Shown piece by piece: positions 2,070 through 55,634 of a stretch of DNA of 64,000 nucleotides. Where the stretch lies: positions 108,033 through 172,032 of the forward strand of contig DASWNF010000014.1 of assembly GCA_036399335.1 (NCBI GenBank). Reading direction: 5' to 3'. Each line of letters starts with the position of its first letter. Positions within the stretch are counted from its first letter, which is position 1. Source of the DNA: Minisyncoccota bacterium. Lineage in GTDB: Bacteria > Patescibacteriota > Minisyncoccia > Phycocordibacterales > Phycocordibacteraceae. Both the position numbers and the translations under genes were made by a program. Below the pieces are notes generated by a model. The model had not been told where the DNA came from. It did not search any database and saw only the letters and a program-made list of their open reading frames with translations.

Positions 2070-2480
2070 ATGAGTAGTCCCGGCTTTGGCGCTAGGGCTC
2101 GGTCCCTGCGCAAGAAACTTGGATTAAACCCGATCCAGGCAGCCCTTGCGCTGAACATTAAGGCTCCCTCGCGAATTGAGGATATGGAACGCACCGGGGT
2201 TAGTCCCTGGACCTTCGAGGCACTCGAGTCTGCGTATTCCGCATTTCTGCACGCTGGCCCAACGTCTAGGGGGAGGAACCTGCTTTTCGGGCAGCTCCCT
2301 ATCTCAGTGGCGCGTAGCCTTCTACGCTTATCCGTTGAGGAAATAGCTGAGCGGTGTGGCTACTCCGTTTCCTTCTGGATGAGGATGGAGGCGGACCATC
2401 GGCCCCTCCGTGCTGATGTACTTAAACGGCTCGAAGCCGACGTTAAAGAAGAGGTTCGAAGGACTATTTTAAAATGCTAA
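2070..2480 (+). CDS. hypothetical protein with helix-turn-helix-like segments (possible XRE-type regulator)
   Basis: 136 aa; SD AGGAGAACC 6 nt upstream of ATG; two HTH-like segments (LGLNPIQAALALNI, LSVEEIAERCGYS); lies at the left edge of the low-GC island. Confidence 0.5.
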   Translation: MSSPGFGARARSLRKKLGLNPIQAALALNIKAPSRIEDMERTGVSPWTFEALESAYSAFLHAGPTSRGRNLLFGQLPISVARSLLRLSVEEIAERCGYSVSFWMRMEADHRPLRADVLKRLEADVKEEVRRTILKC

Positions 2481-2522
2481 TCGCCCACAGGTCGCCCGAC
2501 CTAGTTGGGCGATTCTGTTTAT
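2479..2522 (+). terminator. rho-independent terminator after the HTH gene
   Basis: 9-bp stem AATCGCCCA/TGGGCGATT followed by CTGTTTATT. Confidence 0.5.
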
Positions 2523-2537
2523 TGCTGGCTTAGGAAC
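2522..2537 (+). repeat. short copy (L) of the interspersed repeat family: TTGCTGGCTTAGGAAC
   Basis: Shares TTGCTGGC...GGAAC ends with the family consensus; sits directly after a terminator like copies A, G, H and K. Confidence 0.45.
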
Positions 2538-3002
2538 AACTAAGCCTTATAAAAAGTGGGCCGTTGCGCGAAGCAACGGCCCGTGGATCCTACCAGACGA
2601 GTGAGTTTCCTCACTAGCCAAAACGTCGCACCTGAAAGCGCATAATGACTCGTCTCCGAAGCTTCGGCGGGTGGCTTGAGCCCTCGCACGATACGGCTAT
2701 CCATTTGCCCTTAACGAGCTTTTGAAAGCTGCTTTTAGCCACTACTTTGGGGCCTTAGCTGTCGGTTAGGGATTATCCCTCTATGGTTTCCTTGACCAAG
2801 GATTTTCAGTCTTAATGCGGAAACCACCTCAGATCCGTATTTAGCCTAGCACCATCAAAGGACTTGTCCAGTACAGGTGTGGATGCTGGGTACGCGTCGC
2901 ACCGCTTCCGGTGCGGCCACGAGACACACGGCACTTTGCCGCTCTGACGCACTGCCCGCAGCCAGCGAGAAGCCCGCTTCCTCACGGCAGCGGGCTTTTT
3001 TC
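2538..3002 (+). ncRNA. candidate structured non-coding RNA (~460 nt), unclassified
   Basis: No credible ORF on either strand; many local hairpins (GGGCCGTTGC/GCAACGGCCC, CCGAAGCTTCGG, AGGGATTATCCCT, GCACCGCTTCCGGTGC); ends in a strong terminator AGCCCGCttcctcacggcAGCGGGCTTTTTT at 2971-3002; flanked by repeat copies L and A. Confidence 0.35.
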
Positions 3003-3007
3003 TTACC

Positions 3008-3028
3008 GGGCGGTAGGATGTTGGAATC
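3008..3028 (+). repeat. partial copy (A) of the interspersed repeat: GGATGTTGGAATC
   Basis: 3' half of the consensus ...GATGTTGGAAC; immediately follows a terminator. Confidence 0.4.
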
Positions 3029-3030
3029 TA

Positions 3031-3531
3031 CTAATCCTGTGCAACTTCTTCCGAGACACTTTGGTTGCGCGTAAGTATTAATCGAGGTTCACCCGTATCG
3101 TCGTAATTTTCCTCTCTGCCGGTAATTTGGAAATCATAGGATTGATACAACTTAACCGCATTATTTTCAGGGTGAACTCTTAACCAGACTTGCGGAGCAC
3201 TCTTCAGGTGCTCAAGGATTTGTTCCAATGCCCTGCGTCCAAGGCCTTGTTTCTGATATTCAGGGTCTATCGCAAGGCCGTTGATGTACGCTCTTCCATC
3301 TTCTTCTATTGCGTACGAGGCTGCCCCCACTACCTGGTCTCCTCGTCTTATAAAAAACATTGGTCCCTTCCTATACTCCTCTTCAGCCTCTGAACGATCT
3401 TGAGCGGCCGCATATGTTTTGCCCTGGACTTTCTTCTCCAACGCGACATACGCCTCAAGGTCGTCGAGCGTCATGCGTTGAAGCTCTATAGGCATTTGGG
3501 GGCCTCGCTCGCCCTTACTTTCAACTGACAT
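3031..3531 (-). CDS. GNAT family N-acetyltransferase
   Basis: Acetyl-CoA binding motif QKQGLGRRALEQILEH; 3031..3582 ORF with likely start at an internal Met; low-GC codon usage. Confidence 0.7.
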   Translation of the reverse strand: MSVESKGERGPQMPIELQRMTLDDLEAYVALEKKVQGKTYAAAQDRSEAEEEYRKGPMFFIRRGDQVVGAASYAIEEDGRAYINGLAIDPEYQKQGLGRRALEQILEHLKSAPQVWLRVHPENNAVKLYQSYDFQITGREENYDDTGEPRLILTRNQSVSEEVAQD

Positions 3532-3589
3532 GTCGAAAGTATAGCAGCCAAGCAAATGCTGGGCTCTGAAACGATGTCGCATCCTGCTG

Positions 3590-4063
3590 TTATAAGTAGG
3601 ATGCGAACTCTTCGTCAGAAAGTTCTAGAAGGGTCGCGTCTCGCGAAATGGGGAGCGTGGTCATCTCAACTCCCATCCAAGGTAAGGGGACGAAATTCTC
3701 CGCCTCTTCCACTGAGGTAAACTCCACTTCGGCACGCATTAAACCCTCATACTTGCCACGATATACCTGTATAGAGATTTTTGGGTTCTCAGAAATGTCG
3801 TAGCGATCTCTAACTAAGGCGTCTGGTGCTACTTTCTTGAGTGTATCGAACTCCTCAGCTGAAATTTCCTTCTTCTCTCGAGTGCGCTCTAAACTAGATA
3901 AAAGTTCCTTTCTTTCATAAAAGTACTTCTCATTTATTTTGGAAATCCTCTCCTCAATATTACCTTCGTTCTTTAGGATATGTCGTTCGTAGTGAAGTGG
4001 GGCTATGCCAGACATGTTAGGCATTTCCCTTACATAAAACTTTCGCTCGATTTCATTTTGCAT
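3590..4063 (-). CDS. CYTH-domain protein (triphosphate tunnel metalloenzyme family)
   Basis: 157 aa; N-terminal EIERKFYV signature of the CYTH/CyaB-ThTPase family; AT-rich; 8 nt upstream of the GNAT gene, so probably co-transcribed. Confidence 0.65.
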   Translation of the reverse strand: MQNEIERKFYVREMPNMSGIAPLHYERHILKNEGNIEERISKINEKYFYERKELLSSLERTREKKEISAEEFDTLKKVAPDALVRDRYDISENPKISIQVYRGKYEGLMRAEVEFTSVEEAENFVPLPWMGVEMTTLPISRDATLLELSDEEFASYL

Positions 4064-4067
4064 AATC

Positions 4068-4370
4068 TCAGGCAGCTTTACATACTTTTTTGGTCACGGC
4101 ATCAACAAATAAACGGAAAGCCGGTCGCCTCTCTTTCTCCCAAATAACCCTTACTCCAAGGATGTGCTTATTGGGGCATGCAAATGTTTCTTCCGCGGTA
4201 GGGACTGCCGAATTGATGATGCGATCTAAGTACATACGCCTCAGCGTACCCGGTCCGTCTTTTTGATAAAGGCAGATGTGCTTCGAACATTTTTCGCAGG
4301 CGATATCCAAAAGTCGAGCATATCCCCCACGAGACTTTCTGTACTTGTCGCTTTTAAGGAGACTAGTCAT
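4068..4370 (-). CDS. small Cys-rich (zinc-ribbon-like) hypothetical protein
   Basis: ~100 aa from an internal Met (MTSLLKSD...); CEKCSKHIC...CPNKH spacing; TACAAT -10-like box 9 nt upstream; the 5' extension of the ORF runs through repeat copy B and is rejected. Confidence 0.45.
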   Translation of the reverse strand: MTSLLKSDKYRKSRGGYARLLDIACEKCSKHICLYQKDGPGTLRRMYLDRIINSAVPTAEETFACPNKHILGVRVIWEKERRPAFRLFVDAVTKKVCKAA

Positions 4371-4389
4371 GCAGTGATTGTAACAACGA

Positions 4390-4418
4390 TTGCTGCACTC
4401 TGGGGCGATGTTGGAACC
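4390..4418 (+). repeat. interspersed repeat copy B: TTGCTGCACTCTGGGGCGATGTTGGAACC
   Basis: Near-consensus copy in the gap between two minus-strand island genes. Confidence 0.6.
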
Positions 4419-4425
4419 AGTATTT

Positions 4426-5097
4426 CTAGTATTTGTCCCCTTCTTCGATAGCAATAACTGGCAATTTATATCCTTCGGTTAGAAGTACCTGCTGTATTTC
4501 ACTTACTCGACCCCTCGGCGCTTCAATATGAGTGAATTTCTTGATAGAAATTGGCTCTAATACCCTATCTTCATGCAAGTCGACAAATTCAGAGCCATGG
4601 GTAATTGCATAGGCTTCGCGTTCAACGCCAATTAGAATTGGGTAGTTGGATGATATATCTGTACCGCCGCGAAGAAGAAGATAAAAAAGCGATTGGTTTT
4701 TGTGGGTAAACTTCGCTATGAATGTCGCGGCCTTACTCCTATAGCCAACAGTAAACGGAAGCGGTACGCGTTCCTTCCAAGCGACCCATACGCTTGGAAG
4801 GAGGTAGCGACAGCACCAGAGGCAACGGTTACAGAGCTCTTGCAAACTTCTCTGGCTTTTTGGGAAAAAGAGGCTTGCATACAAGCGTGCGTACCCTCGC
4901 GAACGGGCAAATGATACTGACCGTGCATGCGGACGCTTTTGGTCTGAAGCGTCGTCATAAATAGAGAGTCCACCTTCGTGCAGTATTCCTTTTAAAATAT
5001 CCATGACTTCTCCATTTTCATATTTATAGCGGCCGGTTCCATGCCAAGAACCAATGTTCTCGTAAAGCTCTTCAATTTTTGAGCTGGGTTCACGCAT
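4426..5097 (-). CDS. hypothetical protein (223 aa), low-GC island cargo
   Basis: Long ORF with AT-rich codon usage distinct from the core genome; no recognisable domain. Confidence 0.5.
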   Translation of the reverse strand: MREPSSKIEELYENIGSWHGTGRYKYENGEVMDILKGILHEGGLSIYDDASDQKRPHARSVSFARSRGYARLYASLFFPKSQRSLQELCNRCLWCCRYLLPSVWVAWKERVPLPFTVGYRSKAATFIAKFTHKNQSLFYLLLRGGTDISSNYPILIGVEREAYAITHGSEFVDLHEDRVLEPISIKKFTHIEAPRGRVSEIQQVLLTEGYKLPVIAIEEGDKY

Positions 5098-5123
5098 AGA
5101 TATAGAAACTATACCAATACTAA

Positions 5124-5149
5124 TTGCTGGACTCTGTGATGTTGGAGCC
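5124..5149 (+). repeat. interspersed repeat copy C: TTGCTGGACTCTGTGATGTTGGAGCC
   Basis: Shortened copy of the consensus. Confidence 0.5.
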
Positions 5150-5205
5150 CTTTTACAGTATGCAATTAGAAGCCCCCGGGATGTTGGTCCCGGGGGCGAG
5201 GCGCT

Positions 5206-5853
5206 TCACGAGAGCGCGAGGGCTTGGAGATTTTCTCGTGCCTGCGGCTCAAGGTGTTTGAAGTGCGGGGTGAGGTAGATCTTTGGGCGTTCGAGGAACG
5301 TGGCAGCCCACATCTTCCTGCCCTCATCGTACTCGGCGCGTGTATACCGCGGCTCGTATTCGAGCCAGATGGCTTCCGTTTGCGACTGGAAGTACGCAGG
5401 GTCCTGTCCCAGCCCCCAGAGATCGAGGTCGATGAGCGGTGCGACGATGTTGACGAAGCGCTCATCCACGCATTCCAGGGTATGGGTGATAGTCGCGGTA
5501 ATGCCCTGGTACACGAGCTCTTCAAGAGGCGGGTGCCGTTCACCGTCACGGCGTTGCAGGTCTTCAATTGCCAGCCGAGCGCTTTCACGCTCGCTCTCAC
5601 CGTGTTCACGACCGACCTTAAGCCAGCGGTCGTGGCTCACGATAAGGAATTTAAGCAGAAGGAGCTCGTTCCCCATCAACACGAGGCCGCGCGCCCCTTC
5701 CAGCATGCCGAGGATATGGTTGGCATCATGGTACGTCCGCCACCTCTCGGAATAGGAGCAGCAGAGAGGCTCGACTGCCGCATAGGGGATGCCGAGCTCG
5801 CCGTAGATTTCGGTAACGGCCAGCCGCAGTTCGTCTGTCGGACTAAATTTCAC
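5206..5853 (-). CDS. hypothetical protein, possible HD-type metal-dependent phosphohydrolase
   Basis: 215 aa; GTG start with strong SD GAGGAGGG 4 nt upstream; His/Asp motifs (RTYHDANH, IVSHD) reminiscent of HD hydrolases; a competing 224-aa antisense ORF (5224..5898) is judged less likely. Confidence 0.45.
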   Translation of the reverse strand: MKFSPTDELRLAVTEIYGELGIPYAAVEPLCCSYSERWRTYHDANHILGMLEGARGLVLMGNELLLLKFLIVSHDRWLKVGREHGESERESARLAIEDLQRRDGERHPPLEELVYQGITATITHTLECVDERFVNIVAPLIDLDLWGLGQDPAYFQSQTEAIWLEYEPRYTRAEYDEGRKMWAATFLERPKIYLTPHFKHLEPQARENLQALALS

Positions 5854-5979
5854 AACGCCCTCCTCAAAGGTCTATGGTTTAAGCCAGCTTCACGATAATA
5901 CACAATAGTGGATATGTATAGGACGATTGGGCCTGGGATGATGCCGAGGTTTTTATATACAAAACCGCCCCAATCATCG

Positions 5980-5996
5980 TTGCTGGGACGGGCTTC
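5980..5996 (+). repeat. degenerate copy (M) of the interspersed repeat: TTGCTGGGACGGGCTTC
   Basis: Left half plus GGGACG core only; intergenic. Confidence 0.25.
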
Positions 5997-6005
5997 ATGG
6001 TCTGA

Positions 6006-6263
6006 TTAGACCGTTTCGAGCTTGGACGGGGGGACATTGGCTTGGTAACCAGGTCCCCCATTGTCGAAGTTGACTCGTACCACTCCCCCCGCATCTTCGG
6101 GGAGATGCTGGAGTCGAGAGTCCCAGACGTCGCCAATCTCTCCTTTCGGAATCGGCGAGTATCCAGGGAAAGGAACCTCCTCGGTCGTTCGCACCCTGCG
6201 ACCGCCCAGAGAAGGACGAACGGGTACTTGCCCGGCGACTCGGTCATCTTTGATAACAGACAT
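6006..6263 (-). CDS. hypothetical small protein (85 aa)
   Basis: ATG preceded by a canonical SD AGGAGGTG at 8-nt spacing. Confidence 0.5.
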   Translation of the reverse strand: MSVIKDDRVAGQVPVRPSLGGRRVRTTEEVPFPGYSPIPKGEIGDVWDSRLQHLPEDAGGVVRVNFDNGGPGYQANVPPSKLETV

Positions 6264-6316
6264 AACACTCACCTCCTGTCGCTATCTAACTACGAATGCA
6301 CCGCTCTGTCCATTAC

Positions 6317-6338
6317 TGCTCTGGGACGATGTTGGAAC
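6317..6338 (+). repeat. interspersed repeat copy D: TGCTCTGGGACGATGTTGGAAC
   Basis: Consensus core; lies 14 nt upstream of a small plus-strand ORF. Confidence 0.55.
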
Positions 6339-6351
6339 TTTTCTGTACGAA

Positions 6352-6540
6352 ATGCCGCCCATTGACCCGGGCGGCACGGCTCGAGACTTACCGTGTCTCG
6401 AGAGCCTCAACCCGCGCAGGAGGCGGATGCTGGAGGCCTGGGAAAAGTTGGCCGCTCTACCGACCCAACTGGTGCTCTTAAGAAATGCTTTGATCAACGC
6501 TTATCAGCGGGGTTGGCCCAAATGTTACTTTCTGAGATGA
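6352..6540 (+). CDS. hypothetical small protein (62 aa)
   Basis: ATG 14 nt downstream of repeat copy D; no SD; Arg-rich; could be a spurious ORF within the high-GC patch. Confidence 0.25.
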   Translation: MPPIDPGGTARDLPCLESLNPRRRRMLEAWEKLAALPTQLVLLRNALINAYQRGWPKCYFLR

Positions 6541-6625
6541 CCCACCTTTCAAATCACTAAACGTAACAGTTTCACCTTTAGAGCCAAACCCGTATCAACT
6601 TCAACGAGGAAATAGAAGTGTAGTT

Positions 6626-6655
6626 TTGCTGGCAGTCTGGGACGACGTTGGAACC
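6626..6655 (+). repeat. interspersed repeat copy E: TTGCTGGCAGTCTGGGACGACGTTGGAACC (near-consensus)
   Basis: Full-length copy. Confidence 0.65.
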
Positions 6656-6659
6656 TTTA

Positions 6660-6693
6660 TTTAAAAGACCACCCTCTCGCCGCAGCGAGAGGG
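6660..6693 (-). terminator. rho-independent terminator of the minus-strand gene 6715..6975
   Basis: Stem CCCTCTCGC/GCGAGAGGG followed by TGGTCTTTT on the minus strand. Confidence 0.5.
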
Positions 6694-6714
6694 GATCTCG
6701 CGGACATTGGGTGG

Positions 6715-6975
6715 TCAGCCTTGTGGCGGCTTATACGGCCTGGTACCGCCGCGCATGGCCATGACAGGAATCGGGAACGCATCGTTGAAGTCGTGGCCGC
6801 CTTCCTCTTCGAGGATCAGGACGACGGCATCGCAAATCGAGTCGAGCTCTTCTTGTTGCATGCCCATGAACTTCTTGGAATAAAGACGCGCCATGACATG
6901 CGAGGTTGTCGGGTCGATGCTGTTCTCCCCCGTGTCATCCGAAATGAAGGTTACGGTCGTCGAGTCGAGGAGCAT
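6715..6975 (-). CDS. hypothetical small acidic protein (86 aa)
   Basis: AGGAG 10 nt upstream of ATG; followed by a terminator. Confidence 0.4.
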   Translation of the reverse strand: MLLDSTTVTFISDDTGENSIDPTTSHVMARLYSKKFMGMQQEELDSICDAVVLILEEEGGHDFNDAFPIPVMAMRGGTRPYKPPQG

Positions 6976-7141
6976 TCCGAGTCGCTCCTGATAGAGCTGT
7001 TGAATCCGAGCACGAATTCTGCGCTTCTGCTCCGCTCACTTGCGTAGAAGCCTGAAATATCAACGATCGGCATGACGCCTCTCCCTTTGTGCTGTTGCAG
7101 GGATTAATATAGCACATATTCACCAGCTTGTCATCACTTCC

Positions 7142-7171
7142 GTGCTGGCAGTCTGGGACGATGTTGGAACC
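7142..7171 (+). repeat. interspersed repeat copy F: GTGCTGGCAGTCTGGGACGATGTTGGAACC (consensus)
   Basis: Full-length copy. Confidence 0.65.
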
Positions 7172-7326
7172 TTTCATACGCTGTGGTAGCTTCTTAGCAC
7201 TTGGCAGGAGGCGTCGGAAAGCTACGGACTATCCGCAGGGATAGAAACGGCACGAGTCGGCATGCATCTGTCCGTTGAACCTACGTAACAGCGAAAGCGA
7301 GGTTGGCAGTTCGGAAAGACGACATC

Positions 7327-7358
7327 GGAGCTTGGTTAAACTAAACCAAGCTCCTTTT
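7327..7358 (+). terminator. rho-independent terminator
   Basis: GGAGCTTGGTTaaactaAACCAAGCTCC followed by TTTTATT; repeat copy G begins right after it. Confidence 0.6.
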
Positions 7359-7359
7359 A

Positions 7360-7388
7360 TTGCTGGCAGTCTGGGACGACGTTGGGAC
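7360..7388 (+). repeat. interspersed repeat copy G: TTGCTGGCAGTCTGGGACGACGTTGGGAC
   Basis: Full-length copy immediately after a terminator. Confidence 0.65.
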
Positions 7389-7694
7389 TTTTTTATCCCC
7401 AGATAGGCACTTATGCTAAACTCGTCACAGATGGCGTGATGCCTGGTACGTAGTACGGAGCAACCCTCTTAGGGCCACTGCTAGTTACCAGTCACGAAAG
7501 GCTTGAAAACGCACCCGTAGCACCCACCATAGCCCTTCCCAGCCCCCTGTTGAGTAGTGCGACCTACTCGTCGCAACAGGGTCGTGGAGGGGTTACTAGG
7601 CAGAAGAACGGCATGCGGCTGGAAGGAGTGTGCGTAAACTCCACTGGTGACATCGCGCCATTGCAGAGAGCACCCGTAAGGGTGTTTTCTGTTT
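7389..7694 (+). ncRNA. candidate structured non-coding RNA (~300 nt), unclassified
   Basis: No credible ORF; nested helices (CCCTGTTG...CAACAGGG enclosing GAGTAG/CTACTC); ends with a GNRA-capped hairpin CACCCgtaaGGGTG plus TTTTCTGTTT terminator at 7671-7694; bounded by repeat copies G and H. Confidence 0.3.
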
Positions 7695-7697
7695 CCC

Positions 7698-7724
7698 TGC
7701 TGGGGTCTGAACGATGCTGGAATC
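7698..7724 (+). repeat. interspersed repeat copy H (divergent): TGCTGGGGTCTGAACGATGCTGGAATC
   Basis: Diverged copy following a terminator. Confidence 0.45.
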
Positions 7725-7734
7725 AAGCTGGGTA

Positions 7735-7765
7735 TTGACAGACTTATTTAAGAGCAGTAAAAAAT
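7735..7765 (+). promoter_or_regulatory. sigma70-like promoter TTGACA-17 nt-TAAAAAAT
   Basis: Near-consensus -35 with 17-nt spacer and an A/T -10; upstream of the 7832 ORF. Confidence 0.45.
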
Positions 7766-7831
7766 ATTACCGCCAAGGTGGCGGTTGCCTGCGAGGAAAT
7801 GTGGGTAAGCATCCTGGAATGGGAGGCTCTA

Positions 7832-8185
7832 ATGAGTGAATCTTTTGTTCTTACGTCGACAGTCAGCTGGGCACGGTATTGGGCTCTCGTGGCCGTGCAC
7901 ATGGAGGTGAAATGCAATCCCTTAATCGCTCAAACGTGCCCGCACAAGGTCATTGTCGAACCCATCGAGAATAACGAGCGCAGCGTAATCGTTCGTGGCA
8001 TGTGCGAAGGGCAGCTCTTCAGGCTGGTTTGCCAGATTTTCCAAGTTCGCACCGGCGGGTGGCGCCTCGTGCGGATTCGTGGTTACGTCGGTACGAACAA
8101 CAACATAAACATGTCTCCCGTGAATTTCGAAGGGTACGAGGCGGCTTGGACGATCATGGAGCGAAATTATAACGAAGTCGACTAG
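7832..8185 (+). CDS. hypothetical protein (~117 aa)
   Basis: Start chosen at an internal ATG preceded by GGGAGG; followed by the terminator at 8199-8250. Confidence 0.4.
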   Translation: MSESFVLTSTVSWARYWALVAVHMEVKCNPLIAQTCPHKVIVEPIENNERSVIVRGMCEGQLFRLVCQIFQVRTGGWRLVRIRGYVGTNNNINMSPVNFEGYEAAWTIMERNYNEVD

Positions 8186-8198
8186 GCCCTGCCTATTC

Positions 8199-8250
8199 AG
8201 AGCCCTGACGGAGAGCCCTCTTGCTCTGCATCAGGGCTCTTCTAATTTTA
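8199..8250 (+). terminator. rho-independent terminator
   Basis: AGAGCCCTGA...TCAGGGCTCT stem followed by TCTAATTTTA. Confidence 0.45.
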
Positions 8251-8274
8251 AGTTGGCAGACTAGGTTTCGAACT
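8251..8274 (+). repeat. variant copy K of the repeat family: GTTGGCAGACTAGGTTTCGAACTC
   Basis: J/K subfamily (TTGCTGGCAGAyTAGGTTTCGAAC); marks the right border of the low-GC island, just upstream of yebC. Confidence 0.5.
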
Positions 8275-8312
8275 CACCTCCTTCTACGTATACGCTTTGG
8301 TATACTCCAACC

Positions 8313-8873
8313 ATGTCAGGACACAGCAAATGGGCGCAGATAAAGCGGCAGAAAGGCGTCACGGACGCAGCGCGCAGCCGCGTATTCTCTAAATTCGCGC
8401 GGCTTATCACCATTGAAGCAAAAAAGTCGGGAGGCAATGCATCAGCACCCGGACTGCTCGCCGTCATCGCGCGCGCAAAGGCGGCGAATATGCCCAAGGA
8501 CAACATCGAACGCGCGGTCACGAAGGGCGCATCGAAAGAAGCCGGGGACTTGCACGAGGTTACCTACGAATTCTACGGTCCGGGTGGCGCTGCCGTTATC
8601 GTAAACGCCCTCACGGACAACAGGAACCGCACGACGCAGGAAATAAAACACCTTCTCACGAAGAATAACTTCGAGCTCGGCACCCCGGGAAGCGCTACGT
8701 GGGCCTTTAAGAAGAATCCAGACGGTTCCTTCACGCCGAACGAACCGTTGATGGACGTCGCGGGCGACGACGAGGAAGCGCTCGGCCGCCTGCTCGAGGC
8801 GTTCGACGAACACGAGGACGTACAGAACGTCGTGACGAATGCGCGCGGGTACGAGAACACGAGCGATGAGTAG
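8313..8873 (+). CDS. yebC: YebC/PmpR-family transcriptional regulator
   Basis: MSGHSKWAQIKRQKG N-terminus diagnostic of YebC; precedes ruvC as in many bacteria; TATACT -10 box 6 nt before ATG. Confidence 0.85.
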   Translation: MSGHSKWAQIKRQKGVTDAARSRVFSKFARLITIEAKKSGGNASAPGLLAVIARAKAANMPKDNIERAVTKGASKEAGDLHEVTYEFYGPGGAAVIVNALTDNRNRTTQEIKHLLTKNNFELGTPGSATWAFKKNPDGSFTPNEPLMDVAGDDEEALGRLLEAFDEHEDVQNVVTNARGYENTSDE

Positions 8874-9673: not shown

Positions 9674-11938
9674 ATGAAAAAAGCCAAGAAAGGCCTTGGT
9701 TCCCTCCTCCACAGCTCACATCCGTTCGTACGGCTGGGCTTCGTGGCAGTCGGTATCGCACTCGTCTTCTTGGGCGGGAGCATCCTCTGGGTAGCCTTTA
9801 CGCCAATCCCCGCACTTAATACGTTCGACCCGTCCAAGGTCGCGATGTCGACCAAGATTTACGACCGGACCGGCAAGACCGTGCTCTACGACCTCAACCG
9901 TGACATGCGCCGCACGATCGTCCCGCTTTCGGACGTCTCCCCCAACCTCCAGAAGGCGACCCTCGCCATCGAGGACTCCGATTTCTATTCGCACGGCGGC
10001 ATCAGCATCACCGGTACGGCCCGCGCCCTCCTTACGGACGTCGTAAGCATGTCATTCGCCCAAGGTGGCTCAACCATCACCCAGCAGGTGGTGAAAAACA
10101 CCATCCTGACCGGGAAGAAGAGCGTCATCCGCAAGGCGCAGGAATGGATTCTCGCCATCCGCTTCGAGGGTGAGTACACCAAGGATGAGATCCTTGAGTT
10201 CTATTTCAACGTATCGCCGTACGGCGGTACGCTCTACGGCGCCGAGGCTTCGAGCCGCGCCTTCTTCGGGAAGAGCGCGAAAGACCTCACCCTCGCCGAA
10301 GCTGCATATATGGCTTCCATCCCCCAGCGCCCGACCTACTACTCCCCGTACGGGAATAACCGCGAAGCGCTCGATGAAAGGAAGAACCTCGTGCTCGCCC
10401 GCATGCTAAAACTCGAGCAGATCACTAAAGAGGAGCATGACGCGGCGCGGAACGAAAAGGTTGCCTTCAGCCGCCAGCAGAACAACTCCATCATCGCGCC
10501 GCACTTCGTCTTTTACATCGAACAGCAGCTCGAGGAGATGTACGGCCCCGAGGTCGCGAACCAGGGCTATAGTGTTATCTCGACCCTGGACGTCGACCTC
10601 CAGCGTGAGGCCGACACCATCGTGAACCGCCACGCAATTGCGAATACCTCGCGCTTTAATGCAAGCAATGCGGCGCTCGTCGCCATCGACCCGAAGACGG
10701 GGCAGGTGCTCGCCATGGTCGGCTCTCGCGACTACTTCGATAAGGAGATTGACGGTAACTTCAATGCTGCGCTCGCGCTCCGGCAGCCGGGCTCGGCCTT
10801 TAAGCCGTTCGTGTATGCCGCAGCTATCGCCAAGGGCTACACGCGCGACACCATTGTCTTCGACCTCCCGACACAGTTCTCGACGACCTGTTCCCCAGCG
10901 GACAACCAGAACGGCGAACCGCCGTGCTACGCCCCAGGTAACTTCGACGACAAGTTCCGCGGCCCGATGACCTTCACGACGGCGCTTGCGCAGTCGATCA
11001 ATATTCCGGCCGTGAAGATCCTCTACCTCGCAGGCATCCCGAACGTGCTCACGCTCGCAAAGAGCATGGGGCTCAATACGCTCGGCGAACCCCGCGACTA
11101 CGGGCTCTCCCTTGCGCTCGGTGCAGCCGAGGTACGCCTCCTCGACCTGACGGCCGCCTTCGCGGGCTTCGGTAACGAGGGCATGGTGAATAAGCCGTAC
11201 GGCATATTGAGTGTGTCTGATGCCGCCGGGAAGACGCTTGATGACTTCAAGCCGGAGCCCAAGCGCGCCATCGACCCTGAGGTAGCGCGCGAAGTTTCCT
11301 ACATGCTTTCAAATAACGCCGCGAGAGAGAACGCAGTGAACCCATTCAACTTCCCTGGGTATGATGTGGCAGCGAAGACCGGTACGACGAACGAGTCGCG
11401 TGACGTATGGACCGTCGGGTACACGCCGTCTATCGCCATCGGTGTCTGGGCCGGAAACAACAACAACGCGCCCATGGTGAAGCAGACGGCCGGCTTCATC
11501 GTCGCGCCTATGTGGAATGAGGTCATGCGGTACGCGCTCGGTAAGTACCCGCAGGAATTCTTCAGCGCGCCGCCCGAGATACCGGCTGACGCCCCTGCAG
11601 CGCTCCGTGGCGTGTACTCGGGCCCGACGGGCGTCCACGACATCCTCCACTGGGTGAATAAGGACAACCCGCGCTCCGGCGGCTCATCACAAGGCGATGG
11701 CCAGTACCGCTACTGGGAATACCCTCTTTCGGGATGGTTTGTAGGTGGCATGCCGGACCCTAACGCAACGACGACTGCGTCAACGACACCAAGCTTCGAC
11801 TTCCTCTTCGAAGGCGAACCTGACGGCGATGGCGGCCAAGGGGATCCCGGAGACAACGGCAACAACGGGAACGGTGACGGAAACGGTAATGGCGACCCTC
11901 CCCGGCGCCCAGAGGACGACGCCGAAGACGCCGCCTAA
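9674..11938 (+). CDS. class A penicillin-binding protein (PBP1A-type glycosyltransferase/transpeptidase)
   Basis: 754 aa; N-terminal TM; GT51 motifs (EDSDFYSHGG, GGSTITQQ); transpeptidase motifs SAFK, SNN, KTGT; low-complexity G/N/D tail. Confidence 0.9.
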   Translation: MKKAKKGLGSLLHSSHPFVRLGFVAVGIALVFLGGSILWVAFTPIPALNTFDPSKVAMSTKIYDRTGKTVLYDLNRDMRRTIVPLSDVSPNLQKATLAIEDSDFYSHGGISITGTARALLTDVVSMSFAQGGSTITQQVVKNTILTGKKSVIRKAQEWILAIRFEGEYTKDEILEFYFNVSPYGGTLYGAEASSRAFFGKSAKDLTLAEAAYMASIPQRPTYYSPYGNNREALDERKNLVLARMLKLEQITKEEHDAARNEKVAFSRQQNNSIIAPHFVFYIEQQLEEMYGPEVANQGYSVISTLDVDLQREADTIVNRHAIANTSRFNASNAALVAIDPKTGQVLAMVGSRDYFDKEIDGNFNAALALRQPGSAFKPFVYAAAIAKGYTRDTIVFDLPTQFSTTCSPADNQNGEPPCYAPGNFDDKFRGPMTFTTALAQSINIPAVKILYLAGIPNVLTLAKSMGLNTLGEPRDYGLSLALGAAEVRLLDLTAAFAGFGNEGMVNKPYGILSVSDAAGKTLDDFKPEPKRAIDPEVAREVSYMLSNNAARENAVNPFNFPGYDVAAKTGTTNESRDVWTVGYTPSIAIGVWAGNNNNAPMVKQTAGFIVAPMWNEVMRYALGKYPQEFFSAPPEIPADAPAALRGVYSGPTGVHDILHWVNKDNPRSGGSSQGDGQYRYWEYPLSGWFVGGMPDPNATTTASTTPSFDFLFEGEPDGDGGQGDPGDNGNNGNGDGNGNGDPPRRPEDDAEDAA

Positions 11939-12189
11939 CGAAGCTCCATCACTTGAATACCGTCTCGGTTGAGGCGGTTTTTCAATGCGTCGAGATTGAG
12001 GAGTATGGCCGACTTAAGGACGGGCGGCACGCTAAGCACCAGGCGGCCATCCGTATGCGTGACCTGGCTTGGGGTTATGGGTACGCCCGTGACGGCGGTG
12101 ACTGCCTCCGCAACCATTTGCCTGATCCCTGCCTCCCGAAGGCCGGGCATTGGGTGCCGGGCGAGGATGTCCTTGATGGAGAATTCCAT
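11935..12189 (-). CDS. DUF721 (DciA-like) protein
   Basis: 84 aa; composition and size like DUF721 proteins that typically sit beside dnaA/dnaN/recF; assignment from motif memory only. Confidence 0.4.
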   Translation of the reverse strand: MEFSIKDILARHPMPGLREAGIRQMVAEAVTAVTGVPITPSQVTHTDGRLVLSVPPVLKSAILLNLDALKNRLNRDGIQVMELR

Positions 12190-12252
12190 GCCTCTAGCAT
12201 ACCTGCCTACTCAAGGAGAACGAAGTGATTAAAAACGGAGGTAGTCCGGGGG

Positions 12253-12810
12253 TTATACGAGGCCGCTTTGCAGCAGCTTTTTAGTAAACCGGTGCATTTG
12301 GGGATCGAGGATTGCTGGGTCAGCAGCTAGCACTTCTTCGTATCCAAACCATCGGTAGCCATGGAATTCGCTTGTGTCGAAAGTAATATGCTGCCTTGAG
12401 TCCCCTTTCACTACATACCAGAAACTCACGTCGGTATGCCCTGCAGTTAAGCCAACAGTAACCGTACGCGTGAGGAAGATTGGTAACTCAGAAATAAAGT
12501 CTGCATTTATATTAAGTTCTTCTTGTATTTCTCGCTCAACTGTCGTTTTTGGATGCTCGCCCTTCTCGACGTGCCCGCCGCTTGGCAGCCAAAGGCAGGC
12601 TTTAATATGGTCCATAAGCAGAATCTTTTTTGCCTCTGGATCTACAACAACAAAGTATGAAACAAGATGTTTGGGTGGCACGTCTGGTTTCTCAATGCGA
12701 AATATCTCTACTTCGCTCTCGATCCAATTAACAGCATCGGTAATTGTTTGCTTCTCTAGATCATCATATGGGCTTATGGCCCGTATGAGTGCGTGTATTT
12801 GCTCTCTCAT
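12253..12810 (-). CDS. NUDIX hydrolase
   Basis: Nudix box GGHVEKGEHPKTTVEREIQEELN. Confidence 0.8.
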   Translation of the reverse strand: MREQIHALIRAISPYDDLEKQTITDAVNWIESEVEIFRIEKPDVPPKHLVSYFVVVDPEAKKILLMDHIKACLWLPSGGHVEKGEHPKTTVEREIQEELNINADFISELPIFLTRTVTVGLTAGHTDVSFWYVVKGDSRQHITFDTSEFHGYRWFGYEEVLAADPAILDPQMHRFTKKLLQSGLV

Positions 12811-12827
12811 CAGGTTAGAGACTGGAC

Positions 12828-39031: not shown

Positions 39032-39145
39032 TGAGCCTACCTTACCACACCTTGACTATTTATGCAAGTGTACCGAAAAAGCGGAGCGGTCAGTCTCGAG
39101 CCTGAGCTAAACATTGTGCGAAGCTCCAGATGCTACACTTTTACC

Positions 39146-40057
39146 ATGCAAGCCGAGCCCATGAAGCGACAATTCCTCGAATATATCGAGATCGAGCGCG
39201 GCCGTGCCGTGAAGACCATAGAAAACTATGACCATTACCTCACCCGCTTCTTCGCGCAGATGAACATCACGGATACGTCGGACATTACCGAAGACCGCGT
39301 ACGCGAATTTCGCATGTGGCTTAATCGCCAGCCGGGCGTGTCGGGCTCAATGAAGCGTCGTACCCAGAATTATTACCTCATCGCGCTCCGTGCCTTCCTC
39401 AAGTACTTGCGGAAGCGCGATGTCGTCGCGCTGTCCCCCGAAAAGATAGAGCTCGCAAAACTCCCCGAGCGTTCACTCGACCTCATAAGTTCCGCCGAAC
39501 TCGAGCGGCTGATGGACGCTACCAAGGGCGACGATATCAAGGCCTTCCGCGACCGCGCCATCCTCGAACTCCTTTTCTCGACTGGCCTTCGCGTCTCCGA
39601 GCTCTGTTCGCTCGATAGCGACCTCGACCTCACGCGCGATGAGTTCTCCGTCCGCGGTAAGGGCGACAAGGTTCGTGTCGTATTCTTGTCGCCGGCCGCA
39701 AAGGAATCCGTACGCACGTACCTGGCAGCACGGAAGGACATGGAGGAGGCGCTCTTCGTCAGTACGCCCCGCGGCGGCAAGGGCGGAGGTCCCATGTCCG
39801 TGCCTACCCGACTTACTCCCCGCTCGATAGAGATGCTCATCAAGACCTACGCCACCAAGGCCGGCATAACGAAGAAGGTCACGCCCCACGTCCTTCGCCA
39901 CTCCTTCGCAACGGACCTCTTAAGTAACGGTGCGGACATCCGTTCCGTACAGCAGCTTCTCGGGCATGCCTCCATAAACACCACCCAGATCTATACGCAC
40001 GTCACCGACGCCCACCTCCGAGAGGTGCATAAGAAGTTCCACTCCCGCAGCCGCTAG
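39146..40057 (+). CDS. tyrosine site-specific recombinase XerC/XerD family
   Basis: C-terminal catalytic motifs HVLRHSFAT...LLGH...TQIYTHV; start at an internal Met of the 39062 ORF. Confidence 0.85.
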   Translation: MQAEPMKRQFLEYIEIERGRAVKTIENYDHYLTRFFAQMNITDTSDITEDRVREFRMWLNRQPGVSGSMKRRTQNYYLIALRAFLKYLRKRDVVALSPEKIELAKLPERSLDLISSAELERLMDATKGDDIKAFRDRAILELLFSTGLRVSELCSLDSDLDLTRDEFSVRGKGDKVRVVFLSPAAKESVRTYLAARKDMEEALFVSTPRGGKGGGPMSVPTRLTPRSIEMLIKTYATKAGITKKVTPHVLRHSFATDLLSNGADIRSVQQLLGHASINTTQIYTHVTDAHLREVHKKFHSRSR

Positions 40058-40389
40058 GGAGTGCACGCGCAAGGCTTTGTTTTCAACAGCTCGCGCTGCG
40101 TAGCGATGTCGTCGATATAGTCGTTCTGGATCTGCTTCCCTCCGGCGAGCTTCTTATCAAGCGGCGAGGCGTGGTTGTAGCCGCGCGCTTCCATCTCACG
40201 CACGAGCGCTTCGTGCCTCGTGTAGAGGGCTGCCGTCTTCCCCACCCAGCGTTTCGTCTCCGGATGGTTGGCGTAGCCGCCTTTCCCTTTGTGCTTGGTC
40301 AGGATGTTCCAAAGCCCGTGGAGCTCACGGTGCTCGCCGAGCAAATGCTGTCGGCATAATTCCTCTGGCGGGACGTCCCAAATTCTCAT
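40054..40389 (-). CDS. pyrimidine-dimer DNA glycosylase-like protein (T4 endonuclease V / Pyr_excise family)
   Basis: N-terminal MRIWDVPPEELCRQHLLGEHRELH...W resembles the family N-terminus; 111 aa. Confidence 0.55.
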   Translation of the reverse strand: MRIWDVPPEELCRQHLLGEHRELHGLWNILTKHKGKGGYANHPETKRWVGKTAALYTRHEALVREMEARGYNHASPLDKKLAGGKQIQNDYIDDIATQRELLKTKPCACTP

Positions 40390-40442
40390 CTTTCGAGTAT
40401 ACCGCCGAAGCGAACGGCCGATCTTCGCCTTAGCCCAGGGCC

Positions 40443-41090
40443 CTATTTCTTTTTACCCACAAATCGCACGAGGTTTGAGTTGCCGAGCGCCCGGTCCTTA
40501 TAAGTCTCTCCGAGTTCGTCAAGGATTATAGGATTGAAATCCCCTACGTATGCGCTTAACGACTGGGCACTAAAGTACCGCTTCTTTACTCCATCAACTA
40601 AAAAATACCCGTCCTCAATAAATGTTCCTTTCCCAAACTCAGCATCATGTACGGAGTTAAGTAGGAGCGTTAAGACTCCACCCTCCTTAAGTACTCGCGC
40701 GAATTCGCCGATAAGAGTTCGTGTTTCAACCTCCGTAAAATAGTGTGCGGCGAGATGTGAGTGCACTACGTCAAACTCCCCGTCTTGAAATGGCAGCCTC
40801 GAAGCGAGGTCAGCTTCGATAAAAGATAGGCGGCTCGCCAATACAGGTGGAGTCTTCTCAATCGCCTTTTGTATTCCTGCAGGAGCAAAGTCCATTCCGG
40901 TCACGTGGTATCCCCTTCCAGCAAAAAATCTTGAGTCCTGCCCTTGTCCACAACCGGCGTCCAGTACTTTTCCTTCCGCTGGGAAATATTCAAGTACGGA
41001 CTCAGCGAATAGGGTCGGCTTATGTATCCAATCGGTGTGTGCGTACCGCTCGTGGGCCTCGTCCCAGTACGGCTTCGGCGCTATTACCAT
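40443..41090 (-). CDS. class I SAM-dependent methyltransferase
   Basis: Motif I VLDAGCGQGQD; motif post-I; 215 aa. Confidence 0.75.
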   Translation of the reverse strand: MVIAPKPYWDEAHERYAHTDWIHKPTLFAESVLEYFPAEGKVLDAGCGQGQDSRFFAGRGYHVTGMDFAPAGIQKAIEKTPPVLASRLSFIEADLASRLPFQDGEFDVVHSHLAAHYFTEVETRTLIGEFARVLKEGGVLTLLLNSVHDAEFGKGTFIEDGYFLVDGVKKRYFSAQSLSAYVGDFNPIILDELGETYKDRALGNSNLVRFVGKKK

Positions 41091-41188
41091 GCTCCAATAC
41101 TACATTACTGCCGGATTCTGAAATGATGGAACCTTTCTACAACTATGATAGGTTGGGAACCAGAACTGCGAGGGAGGATTCCGTGAGA

Positions 41189-41503
41189 ATGATAAGCCTT
41201 AGCCTCCCGCTTGGTGTGGGAGACAATCGAATCGATGCATTTTGGTCCGTATTGGCCGCAGAAATTAATGCCCGTGGAGGCTTGGCTCAAGGACAGGTCG
41301 ACTTCTTCACCCATCCAACGAAAATCAGGTCGGTGTATGTCTTGGTGTATGAGGCCGTGGTCATTGACCTGATCACTGACGCACTCCGTGAAGCCTTGGG
41401 TTCCACGTGGCCCGAACACACTAACCTCTATGTAATTGAGTCCTTGGTTCGAGGGGAAAGCATCGTTCGTCTAGGCATGGTCCGCGGTGGGAAAGGAGAT
41501 TAA
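41189..41503 (+). CDS. hypothetical protein (~105 aa)
   Basis: SD AGGGAGG upstream of GTG/ATG; preferred over the antisense ORF 41105..41419. Confidence 0.35.
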   Translation: MISLSLPLGVGDNRIDAFWSVLAAEINARGGLAQGQVDFFTHPTKIRSVYVLVYEAVVIDLITDALREALGSTWPEHTNLYVIESLVRGESIVRLGMVRGGKGD

Positions 41504-41591
41504 TGACACCAAGTAAAAGCCCCTGCAATGAGGGGCTTCTTTTATCTTGGCAGAATAGGTTCCAGACCTTTGGGTGGTATAGAATGCGGGC

Positions 41592-42359
41592 ATGAAAATC
41601 GTTTCCTGGAACGTTAACGGCCTGCGCTCCGTCGCCCGGAACGGCTACTGGCAGCCCTTCCTGAAGGCCGCGAAGCCCGACGTTATCTGCCTCCAGGAAG
41701 TTAAGGCGGAGCCTGACCAGCTGCCGGACGACGTGCGCGAGGTCGGCGGGTTCTCGTCTTTCTTCTCCCCCTGTCAGATCAAAAAAGGATATAGCGGTGT
41801 TGCGCTGTATTCGCGTATCGAGCCCCTGTCAGTCATATATGGCATGGGTATAAAGGAGTTCGACCAGGAAGGGCGGCTAATCGGGGCCGAATACGAGGAC
41901 TTTTGGCTCTTAAACATCTACTTCCCAAACGGCGGACGGGGCCCCGAGAGGCTGGACTTCAAGCTCCGGTATTACGAAGCCTTCCTCGCCTTTTGCGAAG
42001 GGCTGCGTAAAAGTAAGCCGGTGGTCTTTTGCGGCGATGTGAACACTGCTCACTTCCCTATCGATCTTGCTCGCCCTACCCAAAACCAAAACAACACGGG
42101 CTTCCTCCCTATCGAGCGGAAGTGGATGGACGAGCTGGTCGACGCCGGTTACGTGGACACCTTCCGTCATTTTTATCCCAAAAAGATAGAAGCATATTCA
42201 TACTGGGATACGTTCACCCATGCCCGCGAACGCAACGTAGGATGGCGCATCGACTACTTTTTTGCCGCCGAAGAATTCTTGAGACATATCCAAAAAGCCG
42301 AAATACATACGGAAATATTTGGTTCCGACCACTGCCCCGTGTCCGTTACATTAAAGTAG
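41592..42359 (+). CDS. xth: exodeoxyribonuclease III (Xth/APE1 family AP endonuclease)
   Basis: MKIVSWNVNGLRS...CLQE...DHCP motifs; 255 aa. Confidence 0.9.
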   Translation: MKIVSWNVNGLRSVARNGYWQPFLKAAKPDVICLQEVKAEPDQLPDDVREVGGFSSFFSPCQIKKGYSGVALYSRIEPLSVIYGMGIKEFDQEGRLIGAEYEDFWLLNIYFPNGGRGPERLDFKLRYYEAFLAFCEGLRKSKPVVFCGDVNTAHFPIDLARPTQNQNNTGFLPIERKWMDELVDAGYVDTFRHFYPKKIEAYSYWDTFTHARERNVGWRIDYFFAAEEFLRHIQKAEIHTEIFGSDHCPVSVTLK

Positions 42360-54954: not shown

Positions 54955-54974
54955 CTCTGGGGCGATGTTGGAAC
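54955..54974 (+). repeat. interspersed repeat copy I: CTCTGGGGCGATGTTGGAAC
   Basis: Right-half consensus copy downstream of the low-GC gene. Confidence 0.55.
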
Positions 54975-54986
54975 TTTGTACCCGTC

Positions 54987-55532
54987 TTAAGTTTCCGAAT
55001 AAACACTACCTGTTTGAGTAGTTGATCCCGTGCGTACATCAAGCTCCCACTCCCCGTATGTGCTCCCGCCCCCATCTCCACTGTACGTGGTAAAGAATAC
55101 TGTGTATTCATCTATAAAACGAAGACTGTCCGGATTTATGCCGGGGCCTCCTGTGTAAGAACCAATGTACTCAATAGCAGGCGTATCAGCCCATACCGAT
55201 TCGAGAAAGAAATAGCAGGTAGGCGCTCCATAAGGACCGCATGTTGAATTCCTAAAACCGTCAGTCTCTCGCTCGACTACGACATAAAGCGCATCGTATT
55301 TTTTTGAACTTGTTGAAAGTTGTGAAATGAATTTGTTCCTTACGATGCTTACTATCTTGAACCTGGAGCTCTCATACAACTCACGAGTCGATAGACCTTC
55401 TTTAGTTTCTGTCAGAGTTGATGAGGGTGTTGTTTTAAAATCACTAGTCTTTGAGTAAGAGACATAAGATAGTATTCCTAACAAAGCAACTAGGAGAAGC
55501 GGCACAACAATTCGACCGGCTTTTATATTCAT
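54987..55532 (-). CDS. secreted hypothetical protein (181 aa), low-GC single-gene insertion
   Basis: Signal peptide MNIKAGRIVVPLLLVALLGILSYVSYS; AT-rich codon usage unlike the flanking core genes; TATTAT -10 box 9 nt upstream; flanked by repeat copies I and J. Confidence 0.6.
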   Translation of the reverse strand: MNIKAGRIVVPLLLVALLGILSYVSYSKTSDFKTTPSSTLTETKEGLSTRELYESSRFKIVSIVRNKFISQLSTSSKKYDALYVVVERETDGFRNSTCGPYGAPTCYFFLESVWADTPAIEYIGSYTGGPGINPDSLRFIDEYTVFFTTYSGDGGGSTYGEWELDVRTGSTTQTGSVYSET

Positions 55533-55553: not shown

Positions 55554-55578
55554 TTGCTGGCAGATTAGGTTTCGAACC
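55554..55578 (+). repeat. variant repeat copy J: TTGCTGGCAGATTAGGTTTCGAACC
   Basis: J/K subfamily; upstream of the low-GC gene. Confidence 0.55.
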
Positions 55579-55634
55579 TATTCCCACATGAAAGGCATTA
55601 AGCCCACCCTTATGCACGCTATACTGCATACAGC

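Follow-up and report, generated by a model that had tools for sequence, protein, structure and literature searches.

A polar 29-bp motif and tRNA-Gln 3' ends bound arrays of small, mostly one-gene units in Patescibacteria, a candidate counterpart of integron cassettes

The question raised by this locus is what a short repeat is doing between the genes of a low-G+C island. The 64,000-nucleotide stretch analysed here (the window; positions 108,033 to 172,032 of contig DASWNF010000014.1, assembly GCA_036399335.1, from a Minisyncoccota bacterium of the Patescibacteria) contains a repeat of about 29 bp that recurs between 2.5 and 8.3 kb and again near 55 kb. A first-pass annotation counted thirteen copies, lettered A to M, and offered three roles for them: a recombination or attachment site for the cassette-like accretion of genes, an intergenic element of the repetitive extragenic palindromic (REP) or Correia type, or an operator for the helix-turn-helix (HTH) protein encoded nearby. 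The first of these is the role that our results support. We judge it probable that the motif, 29-33 bp long, is the attachment or recombination site of small mobile one-gene cassettes, comparable to the attC site of integrons, and that the tRNA-Gln 3' end closing the arrays is comparable to attI.

The window was scanned for the annotated 29-mer with up to three mismatches, using shuffled sequence as the null. Copies E (6626..6654), F (7142..7170) and G (7360..7388) matched with one or two mismatches, where no match was expected in the shuffles. A position weight matrix built from 165 copies in other genomes of the candidate phyla radiation (CPR) gave these three 56, 54 and 51 bits, respectively, with 29 bits for D (6311..6342; right arm intact, left half diverged), 26 for B (4390..4418; 25.6 unrounded) and 20 for I (54956..54977), in which flanking sequence replaces the left half. 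All are far above the null for this matrix, which over 50 shuffled windows (64 kb, both strands) had a maximum of 6.8 bits and a 95th percentile of 1.8. The nhmmer search agreed on the same six, with E-values from 2e-11 to 5e-5 (F, 2e-11; E, 5e-11; D, 7e-7; B, 7e-6; I, 5e-5). These six copies are real, and E, F and G are the intact ones of the 2.5-8.3 kb array, here array 1.

The remaining letters fared differently. Copies A, C and H are decayed: A (3008..3036) has kept only GGATGTTGGAAT and scores a marginal 5.6 bits (3012-3029), C (5124..5152) carries a 3-nt deletion and has a negative ungapped score, and H (7698..7724) carries two 1-nt deletions and was missed by the ungapped and hidden Markov model (HMM) scans. 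Both C and H also contain several mismatches and were recognised only by eye and by position. Copies L (2522..2550), where TTGCTGG is followed by a hairpin with a 5-bp stem, and M (5980..6020), where it is followed by TCTGATTAGACCGTTTCGAGC with a faint likeness to the anchor described below, have little in common beyond TTGCTGG. L gave no significant match to either model and M, seen by eye only, was not significant in the scans; both are doubtful and are not counted as established copies. The last two, J and K, correspond to the 3' end of tRNA-Gln. Other parts of the first description were borne out. All window copies are on the plus strand and intergenic, G+C is 0.46-0.55 in the array versus about 0.58-0.60 elsewhere, terminators precede L, G and K (predicted) as well as A and H (by eye), and a T-rich tract (consensus cTTT) follows the motif, often containing the stop codon of an opposite-strand gene. 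In an independent assembly of the same strain (Logan SRR10954984, contig L121), position 1 corresponds to window position 7143, a break exactly at motif F, which suggests that the repeat breaks assemblies or that the assembly graph branches there.

A genome-wide motif search had been proposed as a check of the repeat, and it extended the motif well beyond this genome. Scanning for TCTGGGRCGAYGTTGGAAC with one genome per species returned at least 119 loci. Some 40 of them fall in a conserved coding sequence of Rhodobacterales, Myxococcus and a few other taxa and have no bearing on the motif; nearly all others are labelled CPR/Patescibacteria, including Paceibacterota/Parcubacteria, Saccharibacteria, and Nomura-, Kaiser-, Wolfe-, Lloyd- and Berkelbacteria. 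All counts of loci and anchors given from here on refer to fetched loci, among the matches listed. There were 183 strong copies in 76 loci, several of which hold two to seven copies within a few kb, and together they yield the extended consensus ttGCTGG-NNG-TCTGGGACGAYGTTGGAAC-cTTT. Information content is 1.6-1.9 bits per position in the right-hand 19 bases (1.2 at R and Y), 0.9-1.3 in GCTGG and 0-0.7 in NN, with conservation limited to about 33 nt of sequence. Within a locus the motif occupies a single strand, without exception among the 152 copies of the 45 loci that have two or more. In 709 kb of DNA around yebC, taken from other metagenomic contigs that are mostly CPR, no match was found, and a metagenome scan with YebC, whose gene borders array 1, recovered only distant relatives without arrays.

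The bare 19-mer TCTGGGACGAYGTTGGAAC is also present within protein-coding sequence (...ARMEDASLD...WDDVGTFDGRPWRG...) of the Rhodobacterales and Myxococcus loci mentioned above (L003, L004 and L007 among them) and of many prophage-like viral contigs. This is a sequence coincidence that would contaminate a naive motif census. All 120 matches of the 19-mer in IMG/VR (L124-L243) are conserved coding sequence of proteobacterial prophage-like DNA, and a phage attP was rejected as an explanation. The CPR-specific 26-mer had no match in IMG/VR viral contigs.

What closes an array is a different sequence. J (55554..55581, minus strand) and K (8251..8278, minus strand) are real, but by their sequence they are distinct from the 29-mer, each being a reverse-complemented tRNA-Gln 3' end (TAGGTTCGAAACCTAATCTGCCAGCAAT in J and AGTTCGAAACCTAGTCTGCCAAC in K) that scores 31 and 24 bits, respectively, against a separate model of that end (E = 3.5e-8 and 5e-6). 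The first-pass annotation had grouped J, K and L as a subfamily of the repeat and had stated that the element does not fit tRNA 3' ends. The statement about tRNA is mistaken for J and K, which are the T-loop, T-stem and 3' acceptor strand in reverse complement. ARAGORN predicted no tRNA at J or K, and K lacks the tRNA body. Across the loci, the last repeat of every array, read in motif orientation, has a left half TTGCTGG(C/G)AG joined to AYTAGG(G/T)(A/T)TCGAAC, and its other strand matches the T-loop, the 3' strands of the T-stem and acceptor stem, and the discriminator of tRNA-Gln. In 14 loci (L002, L005, L010, L051, L052, L061, L065, L071, L085, L096, L110, L115, L116 and L331) the anchor is an entire tRNA-Gln gene, its anticodon being TTG or CTG, and the remaining anchored loci have only about 28 nt of it, (TAG)GTTCGAWMCCTAGTCTGCCAGCAAT, beside unrelated core genes. 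Genes adjoining anchors are dnaX, dus, ftsQ, serS, an M23 peptidase gene, yebC, pilB and xth. Motif copies lie on one side only of 33 of the 33 anchors, so that every anchor ends its array.

Motif and anchor are related at their ends. Both contain C-NN-CCAGCAA, made up of the 3' strand of the acceptor with a few bases added, and at the opposite end both contain GGTTC; the stretch in the middle reads CAACATCGTCCCAGA in the motif and GAWMCCTAGT in the tRNA. Their contiguous identity is only about 11 bases, and the repeat as a whole shares about 11-17 nt with the tRNA and adds a conserved arm that is not tRNA. The acceptor variant TCTGCCA, common to the fragments and the motif, is a natural form of tRNA-Gln. 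In the sense of the tRNA, an array reads as tRNA-Gln or anchor (...GGTTCGAWMCCTAGTCTSCCAGCAA), cassette 1, GTTCCAACATCGTCCCAGA-CNN-CCAGCAA, cassette 2, the same motif again, and so on. A search of IMG/VR viral contigs with the anchor pattern gave one match, an ordinary tRNA-Gln. In the Saccharibacteria assembly L010 (6287-6600) the 3' part of tRNA-Gln is present three times with runs of N between, probably a scaffolding artefact at the array end.

The units between motifs are small and varied. The intervals between copies (n = 140 in the fetched loci) range from 136 to 2807 bp with a median of about 480 bp, and most contain one open reading frame (ORF). The ORF is opposite to the motif, and hence in tRNA sense, in 80 intervals and co-oriented with it in 43. 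For tRNA-sense genes, 40 of 76 stop codons are no more than 12 nt from the motif, and at the start the motif or anchor is followed by a TGnTATAAT box, then 6-7 nt, then the start codon, a spacing that points to leaderless transcripts. Co-oriented genes have a median of 51 nt of promoter room and 54 nt of terminator room, and cassette genes have their own promoters. Nearly all cassette proteins (119 of 123) are singletons without a relative among the others, and Pfam matches are scattered over small enzymes and DUFs, including NUDIX, methyltransferases, hydrolases, M14 and S66 peptidases, DUF2726 and GNAT. Likeness among cassettes at the DNA level is almost nil, the exceptions being stubs of promoters and terminators and, in L069, a single duplicated pair.

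Some units contain no ORF and extend from just past the motif to an intrinsic terminator (in the window, 2551-3007, 7171-7359 and 7389-7697). These may encode small RNAs of no Rfam family; the ORF-less units had no Rfam match, the region 2400-8400 had none at E up to 1, the whole window had none at the gathering score, and a known RNA family was rejected as an explanation. In L037 (reverse strand, about 3500-3800) a TTGACA-N17-TACTGT promoter stands ahead of an ORF-less unit. Outside the cassettes, start codons 6-7 nt past an extended -10 box (TGnTATACT or TATAAT), without a ribosome-binding site, are found in the window at 8292-8315, 55618-55637 and 41572-41594, and from this start geometry transcripts appear to be leaderless in core genes (yebC, the pilB-type ATPase gene and xth) and cassette genes alike.

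Comparison with related genomes, the other check that had been proposed, addressed where homology begins and ends. In relatives of the window, with YebC 81-87% identical, the order ruvB ... yebC-ruvC-PBP ... dnaN-dnaA is conserved and the ruvB-yebC interval that holds array 1 is wholly different among four relatives: one encodes RelB/YafQ, OTCase and HAD proteins, a second His_Phos_1, CSD, cyclase and LOG proteins, and a third His_Phos_1 and NUDIX proteins. Three of four lineages have retained the anchor upstream of yebC, an anchor conserved in relatives L244 and L247/L248, and motif copies in the yebC relatives are mostly decayed. In other pairs, flank homology begins exactly at the anchor and the arrays themselves are unrelated (L005/L115, 77% over 4.2 kb; L096/L116, 83%; L031/L038, on both flanks). 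Two cassettes recur in different contexts. L079, from Saccharibacteria, and L114 have in common a cassette of about 80% identity between unrelated neighbours, and their alignment starts at the motif and ends at the GCTGG of the next one. The gene of array 2 (54987-55532) has a homologue, 62% identical, in another Patescibacteria genome (L331, JAIETW010000001.1), where it is the second cassette behind a genuine tRNA-Gln(CTG), lies between two motif copies and has the orientation with respect to them that it has in the window; similarity between the two stops at the motif or anchor. The spacer triplet is identical in 51% of copy pairs within an array versus 21% between arrays, consistent with a need for sites to match at the crossover or with cassette pools that are specific to lineages.

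The motif, its polarity, the terminal anchors, the one-gene modularity, the turnover among relatives and the recurrence of two cassettes in different contexts with homology ending at the motif are all direct observations. Cassette recombination itself we infer from the anatomy of the site, because the site is short, asymmetric and strictly polar, has a poorly conserved centre and a block of identity to a tRNA end, and belongs to arrays that a tRNA end closes. In the mechanism that we propose, a circular or otherwise free cassette carrying one motif would recombine with the anchor or with another motif, and crossover would take place via the short shared core around GCTGG-NN-G; the low-information NN is placed between conserved parts as a crossover spacer would be. 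New cassettes would enter at the docking site and earlier ones would be pushed outward. The catalyst would be a site-specific recombinase encoded elsewhere in the genome, most likely a tyrosine recombinase, for which a chromosomal Xer-like enzyme is one candidate.

Arrays of this design resemble integrons, including sedentary chromosomal integrons and the integrase-less attC clusters known as CALINs (PMC4889954). In both, diverse cassettes, mostly of one gene and of largely unknown function, are each bounded by the same site in the same orientation, the array has a distinct anchor at one end, genes often stop right at the site, and turnover among relatives is fast. The sites themselves differ. 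The motif is a sequence-conserved duplex of 29-33 bp without a hairpin, whereas attC is a structure-conserved imperfect palindrome of 57-141 nt (R''-L''...L'-R'). On neither strand does the consensus 41-mer fold better than shuffled sequence (-0.3 or 0 kcal/mol), and the 90-nt contexts of E and F have fold z-scores of +0.6 to -0.7, while the -2.0 to -2.4 of G comes from a neighbouring terminator. The motif reads GTTGGAA against the R' core GTTRRRY, with A where Y is required, and the first-pass annotation was correct in setting attC aside. The anchor is a tRNA-Gln 3' end with no adjacent intI, whereas the attI of integrons adjoins intI. Cassettes here have their own promoters and either orientation, and the hosts are CPR bacteria.

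For the recombinase, the Xer-like gene at 39062-40057, beside rpsO, is the only tyrosine recombinase gene in the window. Small modules that depend on Xer, namely the integrative mobile elements exploiting Xer (IMEX) and the pdif modules of Acinetobacter plasmids, have simple sites of about 28 bp and use a housekeeping recombinase encoded elsewhere, and the arrays share with them small modules, sites of this length and, in the proposed mechanism, an unlinked enzyme. The right arm of the motif, GATGTTGGAAC, is faintly like the XerD arm of E. coli, TTATGTTAAAT (6 of 11 positions). Differences from the Xer modules are the lack of a clear pair of inverted 11-bp arms around a 6-bp centre, the motif arms matching each other at only 3-5 of 11 positions on inspection of the consensus, and the sites being all direct instead of alternating. 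The anchor is a tRNA end and not dif, and the arrays here are near the probable replication origin. The cis-mobilizable elements (CIMEs) that accrete at att sites of streptococcal integrative elements are likewise integrase-less segments with flanking att sites and a recombinase supplied in trans; they differ in being remnants that extend over several kb, occur in small numbers per genome and are linked to a known integrative element, and they do not form long single-gene arrays.

Several results weigh against cassette recombination. No recombinase gene was linked to the arrays, either by ORF clustering of all loci, in which the recurrent neighbours are housekeeping genes, or by phmmer with the window Xer; that search, which covered every ORF of 70 or more residues in those fetched genome-scan loci whose G+C is below 60%, gave one match, in L037, at the far end of the array. 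No recombinase was found by Pfam among the cassette proteins (143 proteins and the 10 largest). Only one arm of the motif is conserved, with no clear inverted pair of binding arms. No excision or circular forms, empty sites or presence/absence differences were seen among assemblies of the strain, and since the other assemblies are identical to the window they provide no strain-level evidence of presence or absence. Two distantly related gene pairs are oppositely oriented relative to the motif, cassette genes carry their own promoters, the anchor spacer is unlike that of the internal copies in some arrays (L066), and motif quality falls only weakly with distance from the anchor. The presence of tRNA-Gln fragments upstream of yebC, pilB and xth is not explained by the cassette model.

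The lack of a linked recombinase is what would be expected if the motif were simply portable homology, with RecA swapping cassettes after DNA uptake by using the 29-33 bp as arms and no dedicated recombinase being involved. CPR bacteria are regarded as naturally competent, the motif is nearly identical across genomes, and the breakpoints of shared cassettes fall in it. However, the anchor shares about 11 contiguous bases with the motif, too few for RecA, and yet ends all 33 arrays; homologous recombination also gives no reason for arrays to lie at tRNA-Gln ends or copies of them, and leaves the strict polarity and the low-information spacer within a highly conserved site unaccounted for. We consider this explanation unlikely.

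The tRNA anchors raise another alternative, in which the arrays are scars of larger integrative elements that targeted tRNA-Gln, such as prophages or tycheposon-type islands, with the motifs as leftover att sites and the cassettes as remains of cargo. Tyrosine integrases classically target the 3' ends of tRNA genes, and accretion in tandem, with partial repeats of the tRNA, has been documented for Prochlorococcus tycheposons (10.1101/2020.12.28.424599) and Islander-mapped islands (PMC4383910). Insertion at a tRNA 3' end that leaves the tRNA intact, direct repeats related to the tRNA end between successive insertions, and older insertions that are pushed outward and decay are common to those islands and the arrays, and decayed copies do exist here (A, C, H and the third array). 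The units of the arrays differ in being about 0.5 kb, ten to a hundred times smaller, tightly distributed in size, and made up of one intact gene with its own promoter and without genes for an integrase, replication or excision; integrase fragments were found neither within the 76 loci nor next to them, the CPR-type motif is absent from IMG/VR viral contigs, and single genes recur as complete motif-bounded units. The same site is also used across CPR classes, arrays occur at isolated 28-nt tRNA-Gln fragments as well, and the motif has a conserved arm that is not tRNA. An origin as scars is improbable on this evidence.

The other two roles first offered for the repeat are both highly improbable. 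A selfish interspersed repeat of the REP, Correia or miniature inverted-repeat transposable element (MITE) type, inserting into intergenic DNA of already variable regions, would be short, intergenic and multi-copy like the motif, but the motif has no dyad symmetry, hairpin or terminal inverted repeats, folds at about zero energy, points in one direction within a locus, is confined to arrays ending in a tRNA-Gln anchor rather than dispersed, was absent from the 709 kb of other DNA, and retains an exact 19-mer common to Saccharibacteria and Paceibacterota that is hard to square with a neutral repeat; bacterial interspersed mosaic elements (BIMEs) were rejected with the rest of this class. A regulatory site (an operator, insulator or promoter element through which a conserved CPR protein controls accessory genes) would agree with where the motifs lie relative to promoters (in co-oriented cassettes, 8-20 nt ahead of promoters of sigma-70 type; on the other strand, 10-17 nt ahead of TGnTATAAT boxes), but the distance to the promoter varies, the motif is at gene 3' ends as often as at 5' ends, every base is conserved including those of the would-be promoter spacer, the HTH gene is not conserved beside arrays, and orientation is fixed to the tRNA-derived anchor and not to genes.

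Further readings of the motif were tried and rejected. The spacing of 136-2807 bp with ORFs in the intervals does not fit a CRISPR array, in agreement with the first-pass annotation, which had also seen no sigma-70, sigma-54 or extracytoplasmic function (ECF) sigma factor geometry; such promoter readings fail on unfit spacing, conserved spacer bases and a varying distance to the real promoters. The motif as integron attC or as a terminator was discarded for want of a hairpin.

Array 1 comprises about ten units. Its possible outer limit is the doubtful copy L, after the HTH-gene terminator (2490-2514), and is followed by a non-coding unit (2551..3007, plus strand) with no ORF longer than 65 aa and no Rfam match, ending in a terminator at 2965-2995. 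Three minus-strand genes without a motif between them occupy 3031..4370, a GNAT acetyltransferase gene (3031-3582) and ORFs at 3590-4063 and 4068-4370. Single minus-strand cassette genes are found at 4426..5097 (223 aa, without a family match), 5206..5853 (215 aa, with a minus-strand terminator at 5172-5197) and 6006..6272 (88 aa). The gene of the E-F cassette (6715..7073, minus strand) is apparently frameshifted: on the minus strand of 6715-7177, a good promoter (ATGACA-N17-TATATT, 7134-7106) is followed by ORFs 6951-7073 and 6715-6975, which do not share a frame. Its terminator is at 6693-6672. Two non-coding plus-strand cassettes come next, one (7171..7359) ending in a terminator at 7327-7354 and the other (7389..7697) also ending in a terminator and having a predicted RNA fold z-score of -2.0 (7400-7690). 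The last cassette gene (7778..8185, plus strand, 135 aa; terminator 8199-8240) precedes anchor K, which is 26 nt upstream of the yebC -10 box. The dnaN and dnaA genes (12828-15544; dnaA at 14.2-15.5 kb) are 4.5-7 kb from array 1, which thus adjoins the probable replication origin.

Array 2 (54.95-55.58 kb) is a single cassette. Motif I forms its outer end, the gene (54987..55532, minus strand, 181 aa) is predicted to be leaderless behind TGCTATTAT and has its stop codon 12 nt from I, and anchor J is upstream of the pilB-type ATPase gene. The XerC-like gene is not beside either of these arrays; it borders a third, decayed array that the first-pass annotation had not noticed (40057..41592, plus strand), located between xer and xth and containing Pyr_excise (minus), methyltransferase (minus) and another ORF (plus), a relic motif CATTACTGCCGGATTCTGAAATGATGGAACCTTT (~41105-41140) and an anchor-like sequence GGCAGAATAGGTTCCAGAC (41546-41567). 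At the same xer-xth site the array of relative L037 is intact: it starts with a motif 7 nt past the xer stop codon, contains two cassettes and ends at an intact anchor in front of xth. The xer-xth interval is a third hot spot and not evidence for the enzyme.

The interval between the PBP gene and dnaN is a second variable spot in the window and its relatives, with NUDIX in the window (11938-12828), a periplasmic binding protein and further ORFs in L244 (8653-12365), a 482-aa ORF in L245 (13527-15434), and GlmS and PNPOx in L247 (13557-16137). No strong motif copies were found in this interval, and the only weak match was in L245/L246 (GGACGCTGTTGGAACCA, E = 0.08).

The arrays look like an undescribed integron counterpart in many ultra-small CPR bacteria. 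Nothing relevant emerged from full-text searches for the sequence or for systems in CPR bacteria that resemble integrons or use cassettes, subscription journals not being covered. It is quite possible, if short of probable, that CPR/Patescibacteria carry a lineage-wide, separately evolved analogue of the integron, with a duplex site of 29 bp, a copyable tRNA-Gln docking site, an unlinked recombinase that may be the housekeeping Xer, and a shared pool of accessory genes. The motif and anchor models allow arrays to be found in metagenomes and the CPR accessory gene pool to be catalogued, and they account for contig breaks at the repeat such as that of L121. In the few Saccharibacteria that can be cultivated, the arrays could show where genetic tools might be inserted at natural sites. 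Genomes of CPR bacteria are very small, few mobile elements have been recognised in them, and little is understood of the routes by which accessory genes are acquired and exchanged. If the proposed system is real, it would be a main channel for the movement of genes through a large share of bacterial diversity, including Saccharibacteria, Paceibacterota and other CPR lineages, and a second, independent invention of the integron principle.

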